This document shows, in pieces, positions 10,658-18,223 of a stretch of DNA of 64,000 nt. Under the pieces are notes generated by a model, which did not search any database, had not been told where the DNA came from, and worked only from the letters and a program-made list of their open reading frames with translations. Source of the DNA: Acidobacteriota bacterium (lineage in GTDB: Bacteria; Acidobacteriota; UBA6911; RPQK01; JADFOI01); the NCBI GenBank assembly GCA_965218935.1, contig CBDCMH010000008.1, positions 117,229 to 181,228 on the forward strand, in the 5' to 3' direction. Each line of letters opens with the position of its first letter. Within the stretch, counting starts at the first letter, position 1. The position numbers and the translations under genes are program-made.

Positions 10658-10704
10658 GGGACGATTCTACCCACCACTCAGGGCATCAGGTTCATCCGCC
10701 ACAG
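10658..10704. repeat. Dispersed hairpin repeat copy A, left half (split by IS; right half 12233-12268)
   Basis: gggacgattctacccaccac..tcagggcatca..ttca.ccgcc.cag matches 18155-18202. Confidence 0.85.
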
Positions 10705-10821
10705 ATAAGGATGAGAAGGACAAACTCCTCAGAGGCAGTCTCTAAAATGAGCTGCAATTAAAGGAACGCAGTCCCAAAGCTTGGGCTGCAAAATATTCAC
10801 TCTCAGCAAAGGAGCTTGGCC

Positions 10822-11904
10822 ATGAAAGATTCTATCAGAGAGATCAACGAGATTCCGGAACTGACCATGGGTTTGGACCTGGGAGACCAATTTTCCTACT
10901 ACTGCATCATCGATAAGTCAGGGAAGAGAGTGGAAGAGGGTAGGGTGAAGACTCAACGACGAGCCATGGAAAGGTTCTTCAAGTCTCAGCCAAAAATGCG
11001 GGTGGTGGTGGAAACGGGAACCCACTCTCGGTGGGTGCAAGCGATAGCCAAGGAGCAAGGACACGAAGAAATCGTGGCCAATCCCCGACAGGTTCGACTC
11101 ATCAGCCAGAACCGAAAGAAATCGGACCGCAAGGATGGAGAGCTTCTGGGACGTTTGGGACGAGTGGATCCCGAGTTGTTGTATCCGATTCAGCATCGAG
11201 GCGAAGCTGCTCAAGCGGACCTGGCGGTTGTTAAAGCCAGAGATGAGCTGGTGAGGGCCCGAACCCGGCTCGTCAATCATGTCCGAGGGTCTGTGAAAGC
11301 CTTCGGGGAGCGTCTGCCCAGTTGTTCCACAGAGGCTTTTCCCCATCGGGTCCAACTCCACATTCCAGATTGCCTGAAGACGGCTTTGGAGCCCCTGCTG
11401 GAGATAATCCAACAGCTCACCGCACAGATCCGCCAATACGATCGAGAGATTCAGCAACTGTGCCAGCAGAAGTATCCGGACACCGAGAACCTTCAGCAAG
11501 TTCGAGGAGTAGGACCGATCACCGCTCTGGCTTTTGTTTTGACCCTCGAGGATGCCCATCGGTTTGGAAGAAGTCGCCAGGTAGGAGCGTATCTGGGGCT
11601 CACTCCCAGACAAGACCAATCCGGGAATCGGGATCCCCAGTTGAGGATTACCAAAGCCGGCGATCGGTTTGTTCGCAAACTACTGGTCGGTAGTTCCCAG
11701 TACATCCTGGGACCTTTTGGCTCGGATTGTGACTTACGACGCTATGGGGAGAGGATCGCTTCCCGAGGAGGAAAAAGCGCCAAGAAGCGAGCCGTAGTGG
11801 CCGTGGCTCGTAAACTCTCCGTCCTGCTGCACCATCTGTGGGTCACAGGAGAGACCTATGAACCGCTGTACAACAGTGAAGAATACCTGGAAGGGGCCGC
11901 CTAA
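10822..11904 (+). CDS. IS110-family DEDD transposase/recombinase
   Basis: GLDLGD, ETG and SDRKDG DEDD residues, YLGLTP..QSG Tnp domain. AAGGAG RBS precedes ATG 10822. Confidence 0.95.
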   Translation: MKDSIREINEIPELTMGLDLGDQFSYYCIIDKSGKRVEEGRVKTQRRAMERFFKSQPKMRVVVETGTHSRWVQAIAKEQGHEEIVANPRQVRLISQNRKKSDRKDGELLGRLGRVDPELLYPIQHRGEAAQADLAVVKARDELVRARTRLVNHVRGSVKAFGERLPSCSTEAFPHRVQLHIPDCLKTALEPLLEIIQQLTAQIRQYDREIQQLCQQKYPDTENLQQVRGVGPITALAFVLTLEDAHRFGRSRQVGAYLGLTPRQDQSGNRDPQLRITKAGDRFVRKLLVGSSQYILGPFGSDCDLRRYGERIASRGGKSAKKRAVVAVARKLSVLLHHLWVTGETYEPLYNSEEYLEGAA

Positions 11905-12220
11905 GAGATTGAACCCAGGAGGGACCCTGCTGAACGTGACCCGCCCATGGAGTTAACCTCAATGATCCAAATGCCCCGTTCGGGTGACTGCGAAAGACCT
12001 GCTGTTCCTTCCTTTAGAAGAGAACGAGCCGCAGATGGCAGCGCCCCGTTTGACGAACCCTTACATGCACCCAGTCCAAGTCACGGGCTGAAAAAGAGTG
12101 CGGATGGAAGCAAGGCAAACAAAATCTGCATCACTGGATCGACCAAGCGAACTCCCATCAGCTGGCTCAATCACCCGGTCCCGGACTTTTGACCGCCAAG
12201 TCGGTCTTGACAACTAAGGG
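11905..12220 (+). ncRNA. Predicted seekRNA/bridge-RNA region
   Basis: An internal loop carries gacctgctg (reverse complement of target cAGcaggtc) and gccgcag (left target plus core). Confidence 0.7.
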
Positions 12221-12320
12221 CCTTCTCATGGAAGCAGGTCTTGGAAGCGAGGGTCGTCGCGGAGGGGGCCAAATTCTGGCGAAAAATTCACGGCCAAATT
12301 TTCGGATAGGACGGGATCTA

Positions 12321-15424: not shown

Positions 15425-15537
15425 CTCAAAAAAAGCTGGCAGCCGTACCCCCGCTGTTCAGAAACAGCTTGGGTTCAAATTTTTCACGGCCTGAACCCAA
15501 GCTGCATGCCTCCAGAAAGCGTCAGAATCCCAATCCC

Positions 15538-17472
15538 TCAGTGCAGATGCCTGAGGGTGGTCAATGGCGAATGGTTTCCGCCCTCTTCAAAGTTGTAACG
15601 AAGTTGCGCTCCTACGGGAGCTTCCCCAACTTCGGAGGCGAATTCGTCTCGAAGATAGCGTACTTGGCCTCCGACTACGGTCATGAGGGGGTAGGTCTTA
15701 TCAATCTGCTCAAACGGGATCGTAAAGTAGTCCTGATTTAACACCAGGAAATCGGCGAGTTTTCCAACTTCCAGAGATCCCAGCTTATCTTCTTTCGTCA
15801 TGAACTCAGATCCCCAGGCCGTAGCCATTTTCAGGACCGACACACGATCCAGCGCCTGATCAGCACCCACGATCACCCCTTGCCGGTTCCTTCGAGTCAT
15901 GAAACCCGTCATCAGCGAAAAGGCTCCGCTTCTCCAGGAGCCTTCCCCTTCCCAAGCCACCTTGACTCCACTATCCAGAGCCCTCTTAACCGGAACAACC
16001 CAGCCCTGGTACTTCTCAAAACCATACTTTTGAATCCAGGGAAAGCTGCGACTCAAGGGATTGGGACCCATGGCCAGCATCATCCCCAGATTCTTCAGTC
16101 GGGGCAGCTGGTCCGGACGAGGGTAGAGACCGCCATGGTCCATGCTCAGGCGCAGCGAACGGACGTGATCCAGCGTCACCTTATTAGGATTTCTGGCCAT
16201 GGCCTCTTCGATCGCATCCATGAAATAATCTGCGGACAGATCTCCATAATTGTGGCCGGCTACGACTCTGCCGCCTTGAGCCAGGTAGGTGACTACCGCT
16301 TCATAGTTCCAGGCATCTTTGCTGTACCTGCACCACTCCAGTCCGCCTTCGCCCGGCTTTCCTCGTTCTTCCTCAGGTACGATCGAGCTGCAAAAAAGCG
16401 GAGGTCCATGGTCGATCATTCCCAAGCCAATGGCCGCAAACCAGAAGTGGTCGTCTCCAAGTTTATAGAGATCACCCAGGCGGCGGACAAAATTTTCGAA
16501 ATGTTGGGTTACGGCCAACCCGGTATAGTGCGTGAAGCCAAAGCGAACGGGCATGCGCTCTTCACGATAGAGCCTCATGTAAGCATTCAGATTCTCAATC
16601 CCCATAAGATGAGACGAAAAGGTGGTGATGCCAGCGGCTGCCTCTTCAAGTAATCCGTAATGAATGATGTCCGCAAGCTTGTCTGTCTTGTCATTGTAGT
16701 ATCCATCGACCACGATCTGGCGGCGGAATTCTATCCCCATATCAGCAAACCCGGTTTCCGTCCAGCCTTCCGGGAAGGGGGCAATCTCCCCGTTATACAT
16801 CTTCTCCAGGGCCTCCATGGCTGCGCTGTTGATGATGTAGGCCGGATGAGCTGCCACGATGATCGGTTTTTCAGACCCGGTGTATCCGTCAAGCTTCAGG
16901 GCAGTAGTCATTCCCCCGTTCAGAAAGTGAAAACCAGGCCCGTCTCCTGTGCCGAATTGAGCATTCTGCAAATTGATAATGGACCATTGTCCGGGTTTTA
17001 CTGAGGACATCCGCTCAGAAAGCAGAACATGCAGATTTCTGTCTATTTCCTCCGGCGTATCGCCCATCACCCGAAAGGCTCTCACGCCCGGGTGGTCGGG
17101 ATTCGCTTGCAGGTAACGACCGAGCGCATGGTCATGGACATGCGTGTGGGCATTGATCAGGCCGGGAATGACGGTTCTCCCACCGGCGTCTATGCGGGTG
17201 GTGTCGGGCCCGGCAAAACGCAGAATCTCATCCGTCGTGCCCAGTCTCCAGATCTGGCCGTCTCTGACCGCCACGGCTTCGTAAATATTGCCCGGGTTGG
17301 TGTTGATGCCGTAGTCGTCCATGGTGACGATCTTGGCGTTGTGCACAATCAGATTGGGATAAACCACAAGTTCGGGTGGAGCCCCTTGGGCTTGCAACTC
17401 CCCGCCTGCCAGGCCGAGCATCCCGACTAATAGAGCTAAACTTAAAACCAGCATGTCTTGCGTTCTTATCAT
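15538..17472 (-). CDS. Secreted amidohydrolase-3 (YtcJ-like) family protein
   Basis: GGAGG RBS, signal peptide, PGLINAHTH, KLGSLEVGKLADFLVL. Confidence 0.85.
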   Translation of the reverse strand: MIRTQDMLVLSLALLVGMLGLAGGELQAQGAPPELVVYPNLIVHNAKIVTMDDYGINTNPGNIYEAVAVRDGQIWRLGTTDEILRFAGPDTTRIDAGGRTVIPGLINAHTHVHDHALGRYLQANPDHPGVRAFRVMGDTPEEIDRNLHVLLSERMSSVKPGQWSIINLQNAQFGTGDGPGFHFLNGGMTTALKLDGYTGSEKPIIVAAHPAYIINSAAMEALEKMYNGEIAPFPEGWTETGFADMGIEFRRQIVVDGYYNDKTDKLADIIHYGLLEEAAAGITTFSSHLMGIENLNAYMRLYREERMPVRFGFTHYTGLAVTQHFENFVRRLGDLYKLGDDHFWFAAIGLGMIDHGPPLFCSSIVPEEERGKPGEGGLEWCRYSKDAWNYEAVVTYLAQGGRVVAGHNYGDLSADYFMDAIEEAMARNPNKVTLDHVRSLRLSMDHGGLYPRPDQLPRLKNLGMMLAMGPNPLSRSFPWIQKYGFEKYQGWVVPVKRALDSGVKVAWEGEGSWRSGAFSLMTGFMTRRNRQGVIVGADQALDRVSVLKMATAWGSEFMTKEDKLGSLEVGKLADFLVLNQDYFTIPFEQIDKTYPLMTVVGGQVRYLRDEFASEVGEAPVGAQLRYNFEEGGNHSPLTTLRHLH

Positions 17473-18154
17473 TTTCGATCCCTCCCACTATGAGATTAAG
17501 GTTTAAACCGCCTCCTGATCCTGGAAACGCATGGAGTTCCACCCGTTCATTTAAGTCCAATCTGGAGCAAGAAGTCAACCGAATCAGGCTTGGAACCATC
17601 CGTCCCGACTGCGTTGGCTTGTTTATGTTCATCGAGACTGGAAGAAACCTCCGCTTCTCTGCAAAACTTGTCGGGTAAAGACGCGTAAGCATTGGGCAAA
17701 GAAGCGAAAACGAGAGTGGGTCCGAGCCAAATGCAGGAATTGCGGTTCCGACATTTACCTTCGTAAGGAATGGCTCGATCCTCTCTACCTACTGTAAATC
17801 CAAATTCTGCAGAGAGGGAGAAAAGAAGGGACGTCGCGCAGGCAACTACGTTACCAAAGCGTTGGCTTCTAAGATGCCTAAGAGCGGATGGAAGGTTCCA
17901 GGAGGTCTGCCGTCTCTCGGGAAGAAGCGCTAGGGAGATATTGTAAGTCCTGGAAGTGGAATTTTCTAAGTGCCTTTCAAAGTGTTTTTTTGAGTCTGTC
18001 GATTGACGCGAAGGGCAGGGATTTTCGCTAAAAATCCCATTCCGGTCCTTCCTCTTCCTCGACTTCTTCCGATTCAACATCGACCACTTTCTTGGCGGCG
18101 GGAGGCTACCTGAGCAGGGCCGAGTCTAGGCTATATTGAAATTCAAGATGAAAG

Positions 18155-18223
18155 GGGACGATTCTACCCACCACGTCAGGGCATCAAATTCACCCGCCGC
18201 AGCAGGTCGTGGAAGCGAGGGTC
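18155..18223. repeat. Dispersed hairpin repeat copy B (intact; AG core 18201-18202)
   Basis: Contains both halves seen flanking the IS1111 element, with imperfect arms gacga..ccacg / cgtgg..ggtc. Confidence 0.9.

Follow-up and report, generated by a model that had tools for sequence, protein, structure and literature searches.

Insertion sequences (ISs) of the IS1111 group carry a non-coding region that lies downstream of their transposase gene and where the complement of the target's top strand comes first, have sub-terminal repeats and make no target duplication (PMC11187229). Its IS1111-attC elements target the attC sites of integrons (Post & Hall 2009, as cited in PMC11187229), and repetitive extragenic palindromic (REP) sequences are the targets of ISPpu9, ISPpu10 and IS621 (PMC12288879; bioRxiv 10.64898/2026.03.19.712850; PMC11208160). 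REPs are extragenic palindromes, and ISPpu10 requires the hairpin of its target (bioRxiv 10.64898/2026.03.19.712850). With the REP-targeting ISs, transfer from one target copy to another is possible for IS-cargo-IS units as well as for separate modules (PMC12288879; bioRxiv 10.64898/2026.03.19.712850); movement of the IS-cargo-IS type between repeated targets has been demonstrated experimentally for ISPpu10 (bioRxiv 10.64898/2026.03.19.712850) and suggested for the ISPpu9 modules (PMC12288879). Here we analysed a repeat that is present in three copies in a 64-kb stretch of DNA, hereafter the window, from an Acidobacteriota bacterium (assembly GCA_965218935.1, contig CBDCMH010000008.1, positions 117,229 to 181,228). 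An earlier note, made from the sequence alone, had taken this repeat for a dispersed hairpin. By homology, the repeats are orphaned extreme 3' ends of Ser/Thr-kinase + TPR genes: they span the final 15-23 codons with the stop codon and, in one lineage, a further ~20 nt, and an IS1111-group element inserts into their core. Both the kinase 3'-end identity and the targeting by the IS are well supported. The complete picture, in which kinase gene-end orphans serve as the target of an RNA-guided IS and form arrays through recombination within the segment, we consider likely.

The site thus compares with the described targets as follows. Like the targets of the IS1111-attC group, it is a short repeat behind genes in co-oriented arrays, entered at one position and in one orientation by an IS with sub-terminal repeats; unlike them, it has no R/L boxes, no imperfect palindrome and no nearby integron integrase, and its origin is the coding 3' end of a family of kinase genes. 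As with the REP targets, a multicopy chromosomal sequence appears to be recognised via the RNA guide of an IS110/IS1111 recombinase, the guide here being predicted, but the site is a non-folding gene end and we found no IS-cargo-IS unit.

Two further systems resemble the locus in other respects. Genomic islands at the 3' ends of tRNA and protein genes are bounded by attL/attR direct repeats and grow by tandem accretion of integrative and conjugative elements (ICEs), integrative and mobilisable elements (IMEs) and cis-mobilisable elements (CIMEs). The window shares with them a gene 3' end that is duplicated together with its stop, orphan copies that retain the original downstream flank, direct arrays and a tRNA fragment alongside; it differs in that no integrase was found in it, its modules measure only 0.2-4 kb, its array has no intact target gene, and the potential targets are hundreds of paralogs instead of one gene. 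In Neisseria, arrays of dRS3 and neisserial intergenic mosaic elements (NIMEs) provide sites at which the Piv-like (IS110-related) recombinases encoded by Nf prophages act, dRS3 being a 20-bp inverted-repeat element of non-coding origin. In both cases short dispersed repeats are integration sites of a DEDD-type recombinase and hot spots of mosaicism between genes, whereas the repeat described here is of coding origin.

Homology of the repeats to the coding end of kinase-TPR genes

The three copies lie on the same strand. Their positions were confirmed: a 24-mer, CAGCAGGTCGTGGAAGCGAGGGTC, matches at 12232 (2 mismatches), 14253 and 18200 when up to 2 mismatches are allowed and matched in none of 100 shuffles, and the positions 10658 and 18155 share a 20-mer, GGGACGATTCTACCCACCAC, without a mismatch. 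Translated on the minus strand, all three copies give an in-frame C-terminus, ...DPRF(H/Q)DLL(R/L/W)R(M/V)NL(E/M)P, followed by a stop. Copy 3 reads SDPRFHDLLRRVNLMP and copy 2 reads PLYDDPRFHDLLLRMNLEP, each ending at its stop, and copy 1 reads PLRDDPRFQDLL up to an inserted IS and then WRMNLMP and the stop. This DPRF... motif is the conserved C-terminus of ~800-aa Ser/Thr-kinase + TPR proteins of Acidobacteriota (Pkinase and TPR by Pfam), a family that is highly multiplied in this phylum. The parts of the three copies are listed below.

10658-10704, minus strand: copy 1, stop-side half; 10678-10704 encodes (L)WRMNLMP and a stop (TCA on the plus strand)
10658-10677, minus strand: 3' flank of copy 1, 20 nt, identical to the flank of copy 3
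12235-12300, minus strand: copy 1, upstream half, encoding ..FSPEFGPLRDDPRFQDL; clear family similarity stops at ~12268-12300
14229-14289, minus strand: copy 2, an intact orphan encoding PLYDDPRFHDLLLRMNLEP and a stop
18155-18226, minus strand: copy 3, an intact orphan encoding SDPRFHDLLRRVNLMP and a stop (18176-18226), with the shared 20-nt 3' flank at 18155-18174

With eight family members as tblastn queries, only the last 15-23 codons were recovered at each of the three sites, and the whole 64 kb contained no other family sequence and no family gene. To place the repeat in a wider context, one genome per prokaryotic species was scanned with the query AGGTCNTGGAAGCGAGGGTC. The scan returned 85 stretches, nearly all from Acidobacteriota metagenome-assembled genomes (MAGs), many of them marine or sponge-derived. 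At about 15-20 of the 85, the sequence is the true end of an open reading frame (ORF) of 600-900 codons; at about 45, it is an orphan, the frame upstream being open for fewer than 60 codons. A scan of metagenome contigs with a His-variant 22-mer added 83 further stretches, again mostly orphans. These 85 and 83 stretches dispose of the possibility, named in the earlier note as the one that would undo its proposal, that only three copies exist and stem from one local duplication. A profile built from 64 instances then yielded 215 instances in the collected loci (individual loci are designated L001 and so on below), most of them orphans, all instances having been gathered with patterns from the 3' end itself. 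The flank lineage of copy 1 (LMP and stop, then gtggtgggtagaatcgtccc) was found again in L079, L082, L117, L132, L147 and L169.

We had also considered the His variant (GTCGTGG) as an orphan-specific form, and dropped this idea because the metagenome scan contains long ORFs with it (L112, L123, L125 and L141). In a sponge-associated lineage (L009, L041, L060, L072, L075 and L085), the orphan lies within a conserved unit of ~175 nt, in which ~110 nt past the stop are conserved (..CCGCATTTGTTCCTTTGCGG..GGCCAAGGAGAGGCAAGG..); no convincing consensus fold was found for these units on either strand.

The repeat examined as a hairpin

In the earlier note, the three copies were credited with shared imperfect arms, gacga..ccac and gtgg..tcgtc, and were read as a REP-like element or a non-canonical cassette recombination site, which would make them substrates of a RAYT/HUH nuclease or an integron integrase. 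Some observations agree with such a hairpin. The arms of the restored copy 1 are imperfectly complementary, the co-oriented arrays with a site packed behind each gene look like integron cassettes, and relatives of the IS within IS1111 target REP and attC (PMC11187229). The arms themselves, however, are not a shared feature. Only copies 1 and 3 possess the left arm, and in copy 3 the right arm lacks its tcgtc end. Copy 2 and the majority of the 215 instances do not have the arms, and the stretch described as the right arm encodes DDPRFH. Upon folding of the three copies on both strands, the proposed stem appeared in none of the six minimum-free-energy structures, and the fold z-scores relative to shuffles ranged from -0.52 to +1.36, indicative of folding no better than shuffled sequence. 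Homology to a protein C-terminus and codon-periodic variation (see below) argue further against this reading.

Examined as REPs, the copies show neither a palindromic hairpin nor an extragenic origin, neighbouring pairs across loci are direct in 43 of 44 cases with no inverted pairs in the window, and the window ORFs scanned include no RAYT and no Y1/HUH gene. Examined as attC sites, they do form a co-oriented array with the site directly behind an ORF, yet they have no R''/R' core sites and no paired R/L-box bottom-strand hairpin; no IntI/attI heads the array, and the ORF scans over 1-35 kb in the window found no IntI nearby. The absence of RYYYAAC/GTTRRRY ends, already remarked upon in the earlier note, holds across the 215 instances, where these motifs stand at no fixed offset and either one occurs in at most 7 of the 215 per 10-nt offset bin. 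Rfam scans, both with gathering thresholds and by E-value, matched no family at the repeats and gave only a chance tRNA-like YrlA match on the neighbouring tRNA fragment, and neither intrinsic terminators nor promoters were found at the repeats. The REP-like or attC-like hairpin is largely refuted by these results, and we consider it highly improbable. For annotation, this means that such 50-70-nt pieces are not to be named REPs, nor their frames genes.

An IS1111-type element enters the repeat at a single position

Copy 1 is split by an element of the IS110/IS1111 family, assigned by the Pfam domains DEDD_Tnp_IS110 and Transposase_20, with a transposase ORF at 10822-11904 and a non-coding region of 330 nt downstream. 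Its sub-terminal inverted repeats, ATGAGAAGG and CCTTCTCAT, are 9-11 bp long, with extensions of 6 nt on the left and 3 nt on the right. At the junction an AG core is ambiguous between IS and target, and there is no further target duplication. The element comprises the following parts.

10705-12234, plus strand: IS1111-group insertion sequence splitting copy 1, 1530 bp including one AG core copy (Pfam)
11994-12034, plus strand: candidate seekRNA/bridge-RNA target guides, from complementarity or identity to the target halves

An exact-protein look-up of the transposase retrieved the same IS in L001 and L002, where it lies within the 3' ends of TPR genes at the same nucleotide and in the same orientation. 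In total, eight full-length copies occupy this one position and orientation in varied contexts (the window, L001, L002, L014, L036, L045, L082 and L166). In addition, L156 (reverse strand) carries a ~308-bp transposase-less miniature between orphan halves at the target position of the full IS; its right sub-terminal repeat (GGGCCTTCTCATGG) resembles those of IS1111 elements, and its left one is degenerate. All eight copies and the miniature sit between ..CGCAG and CAGGTC.., so that the ~20-nt core of the repeat, ..CCGC(C/A)GCAG followed directly by CAGGTC(T/G)TGG.., with the insertion point between the two, is the insertion site of this IS1111-group element. The fixed position, the single orientation, the lack of duplication beyond the core and the matching guides described below bear out the proposal of a specific IS1111/IS110 target. 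When the IS enters a real gene, the last 8 codons are turned into 'P-stop'.

The non-coding region of the IS contains two segments that correspond to the site. The reverse complement of the 12-nt AAGACCTGCTGT (11994-12005) is exactly ACAG followed by CAGGTCTT, spanning the insertion point, and the 7-nt GCCGCAG (12028-12034) equals the left target flank, as would be expected of seekRNA guides. These two short candidate guides are predicted to pair with both strands of the site, and such pairing would explain why the IS enters at a single position and in a single orientation. Consistent with this assignment, the layout of the IS and the order of the guides agree with the IS1111 seekRNA arrangement described previously (PMC11187229). 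Moreover, one guide base, A or C, pairs with the target base, T or G, in seven of the eight IS copies: copies with a ..AGACC.. guide adjoin CAGGTCTTGG in 4 of 4 cases, and copies with a ..CGACC.. guide adjoin CAGGTCGTGG in 3 of 4, the exception being L036. This covariation suggests natural reprogramming of the guide, in a sample that is small and comes partly from one genome.

The unoccupied cores at 14254 and 18201 had been predicted as future insertion sites. Copies 2 and 3 are G-variant sites with one distal mismatch to the guide of the resident IS, and since a mismatch of this kind is tolerated in L036, both copies stay plausible targets; the same G-variant sites are occupied by the IS in L014, L045 and L166. 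Among the sequence variants of the site, a cAg-to-cCg change, which replaces a conserved Leu by Arg and abolishes the AG core, occurs in orphans only. No solo IS ends and no IS-cargo-IS units were found.

The right end of the IS (12193-12209) contains CCGCCAAGTCGGTCTTG, which resembles the target CCGCCGCAGCAGGTCTTG and is invariant across the aligned IS copies. A different, rve-type IS of 1.5 kb occurs in the window at 19864-21363, 44230-45776 and 59806-61305, as well as in L002 at 5114-6613, where it truncates the same TPR gene whose 3' end carries the IS1111-type element.

Orphan ends form co-oriented arrays and mark switches of gene content

The repeat forms arrays at 33 loci, with two to four copies spaced 0.2-9.5 kb apart, and the neighbouring pairs are co-oriented in 43 of 44 cases. 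Of the 65 orphans that have an upstream neighbour in their locus, 44 are co-oriented with it, and in 15 of these 44 its stop lies at most 15 nt away. The window follows this pattern. Its genes and gene fragments at the three copies are given below.

12321-14212, no single strand: module A, between copies 1 and 2, three genes (Pfam)
12321-13187, minus strand: alpha/beta hydrolase of module A (Pfam)
13184-13546, minus strand: glyoxalase-fold protein of module A (Pfam)
13835-14212, plus strand: truncated GNAT of module A (Pfam)
14301-14332, plus strand: orphan 3' fragment of tRNA-Arg(TCT) with T-arm, acceptor and CCA, 11 nt from copy 2
14633-18080, minus strand: module B, between copies 2 and 3, encoding a 263-aa protein, an amidohydrolase (15538-17472) and a 177-aa protein (Pfam)
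18231-19424, minus strand: PAS/HisKA_3/HATPase_c histidine kinase, frameshifted near 18333; the true stop, 18231-18233, is 4 nt away from copy 3

As had been noticed from the sequence, two copies lie just past the stops of minus-strand genes, copy 3 at 4-7 nt from that of the histidine kinase and copy 1 at ~50 nt from that of the hydrolase at 12321, and copy 2 abuts the tRNA 3' fragment. The junction of the histidine kinase with copy 3 is also present in L015 and L104.

The orphans also mark points at which gene content switches between related genomes. In comparisons between genomes with IS and kinase genes masked, the ends of homology blocks fall inside the repeat in 28% of cases, compared with 2.2% for random positions. 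The window has the GNAT gene, a repeat, 3.9 kb of module B, a repeat and the histidine kinase in this order, and L015 has the GNAT gene, a repeat, 1.7 kb with another gene, a repeat and the histidine kinase, module B being replaced. The module A genes are found beside separate orphans elsewhere, the glyoxalase and the hydrolase in L073 and L060 and the GNAT in L015. At the level of sequencing runs (labelled X), the segment 14597-17540 recurs at 99% identity between other flanks in X8 and X9, and run X5 is without the GNAT segment 13641-14227, exactly up to the stop of copy 2, the joint from 13640 to 14228 having CAAC between. Shuffling of flanking genes, for which the earlier note had proposed a check, is seen in the module swap in L015, the other flanks in X8 and X9 and the separated genes in L073 and L060. 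Look-ups of the module genes by exact protein found them only in near-identical strains, where the arrangement is that of the window, and for the 177-aa protein of module B no exact match was recorded.

The window itself is 99.7-99.9% identical to the matching contigs in the European Nucleotide Archive (ENA), which belong to a different assembly. One of these, ctg835777, has an IS3-like insertion in the histidine-kinase gene at ~18618-18632 and is without the rve-type IS at 19864-21363; these IS differences identify the window as a distinct strain at 99.9% identity. The GNAT of the window, 125 aa, is a shortened form of a 277-aa gene in L015. In L097, orphans stand head to tail without a spacer, and in L013 a complete orphan is accompanied, at a distance of 30 nt, by a truncated stop-side fragment. 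At 10467-10560 the window also has a conserved non-coding element of ~94 nt with tandem GCGAGACGCG and sharp ends. This element is located 25-120 nt from the stop side of an orphan in the window, L051, L071 and runs X6, X8 and X9, and ~0.5 kb off in L025.

The orphans remain attached to the DNA that followed the original kinase gene. Where L141 has a complete kinase gene, ten other loci have an orphan instead, next to the convergent downstream gene that they share with L141, and the homology begins inside the repeat. Direct repeats that equal a gene 3' end and retain its original downstream flank, complete from the core to the stop, have the classical anatomy of attL/attR, and the orphans could accordingly be the scars of elements that a tyrosine or serine recombinase moved at kinase-TPR 3' ends, with tandem accretion and later loss of the recombinase. 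The tRNA fragment 11 nt from copy 2 would fit such an origin, as would the tRNA genes and fragments that are frequent near other orphans. ARAGORN called no tRNA at 14301-14332; in contigs from other runs the fragment is continued on its upstream side by a tRNA body whose anticodon loop is CTTCTAA, which identifies it as a piece of tRNA-Arg(TCT). The window contains no tRNA gene anywhere, only this orphan fragment. Elsewhere, tRNA genes or repeated tRNA fragments are common near orphans, for example three tRNA-Gly pieces in L022.

Recombinases were also encountered near orphans. Five metagenome loci (L094, L115, L140, L150 and L176) encode a resolvase-type serine recombinase of ~205 aa (RVALYARVSTTEQ...) at 0.35-2.4 kb from an orphan, and tyrosine recombinase ORFs are present in L001, L128, L132 and L140. 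However, the serine recombinase occurs at variable side and distance, and we treat it only as a lead; the tyrosine recombinases are near orphans in just 4 of 171 related loci, as found by phmmer and tblastn with a single query, an L001 integrase fragment, with which distant integrases may have been missed. Over 1-35 kb in the window there is neither type of recombinase, the ORFs of this region giving no match to Phage_integrase, and the linked tyrosine recombinase or RAYT/HUH nuclease that the earlier note had proposed to look for was not among the window ORFs scanned. Furthermore, the modules of 0.2-4 kb contain no recombinase, no intact target gene stands at the end of the window array, and the outer boundaries of the orphans are ragged. 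Scars of a dedicated recombinase are therefore, in our view, an unlikely source of the orphans.

Signs of exchange with functional gene ends

The orphans vary in the manner of coding sequence. In orphans of canonical length, variation at the third codon position is 0.275, compared with 0.12 and 0.10 at the other two, and the ends of real kinase-TPR genes show 0.47 compared with 0.27 and 0.19. The indels of orphans are in frame, and the stop is mostly retained. In addition, the flanks of the orthologous loci L176 and L025 match at ~99% identity for hundreds of bases to either side, but the 22 nt at the IS core include 4 differences. To judge from this alignment, the difference is a short-patch exchange.

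A conversion-like patch of this kind would equally be expected if the orphans were passive debris of deleted or overwritten kinase-TPR genes, often tandem paralogs, whose last ~60 nt are kept by regulatory overlap with the neighbour and held similar through gene conversion from the many paralogs, the IS merely making use of them. There is indeed a continuum from full genes through remnants of 50-280 codons (L001, L002 and L176) to minimal orphans, tandem kinase genes occur in L030, L040 and L068, and the ragged outer boundaries and the retained downstream flank agree with decay. The spacers, however, tell otherwise: a kinase/TPR remnant is present in only 4 of 44 and absent from the other 40. 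The stops of unrelated co-oriented genes at most 15 nt from 15 orphans would rarely be expected from random deletion, one and the same module stands between different flanks in different genomes, and copies 1 and 3 share the 20-nt flank past the stop and diverge beyond it. We consider it improbable that the orphans are debris of this kind.

Discussion

Serial insertion by recombination within the conserved segment is, we infer, the most likely origin of the arrays. DNA would insert repeatedly, with kinase gene ends and orphans already in place as the recipients, and each insertion would duplicate the segment, just as attL and attR arise on integration at a gene 3' end. The crossover might be provided by general homologous recombination over 60-80 nt of identity or by IS-cargo-IS mobilisation by the RNA-guided transposase, and ongoing exchange with the many functional gene ends would preserve the coding look of the orphans. 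Serial insertion would account for the completeness of the orphans from core to stop, their original downstream flank, their co-orientation, their packing behind unrelated genes and their coding-like variation.

Several points weigh against this reading. Because the query patterns come from the 3' end itself, the collection covers only this end of the family, and the ratio of orphans to genes is biased. By tblastn, the array in the 64-kb window has no intact kinase gene at its head, and no locus has a module between two IS copies. The right-hand boundary of the orphans is ragged, at 0-37 nt past the core, a pattern more in line with homologous recombination or decay than with one fixed crossover. 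Circular forms, empty sites and excision joints were not seen in the Logan contigs of the closest strains, in which unitigs break at repeats and rare alleles are invisible. Finally, the guide-target covariation stems from few, partly related copies, with a one-sided Fisher p of ~0.07 and the exception of L036.

The idea of a non-canonical cassette recombination site survives in part. The co-oriented arrays, the reshuffled flanking genes and the packing of gene and then repeat speak for it circumstantially; neither a cassette recombinase nor an excision product was found. In its strongest form, the orphan ends would be the sites of a new cassette system in marine and host-associated Acidobacteriota, in which small promoter-bearing modules, each with a 60-80-nt site copied from a kinase-TPR 3' end, enter kinase ends or orphans without gene loss and are moved in trans by the seekRNA-guided IS1111 transposase or by the small serine recombinase. 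We hold this form to be doubtful. If true, it would be an analogue of integrons in function, with its 'attC' mimicking host coding sequence.

For RNA-guided recombination, these results mean that an IS1111-type recombinase can use the conserved coding end of a large paralogous family as a multicopy landing site, the landing sites known so far being REP, attC and transposon ends, and natural variants of both guide and target are on hand for study. For the Acidobacteriota, they bring to light a large family of orphan gene ends, with at least 200 instances in MAGs of the phylum and marine metagenomes, that punctuate accessory regions. If the arrays arise by site-directed insertion, they would represent a new cassette-like route of gene exchange in a poorly studied phylum.

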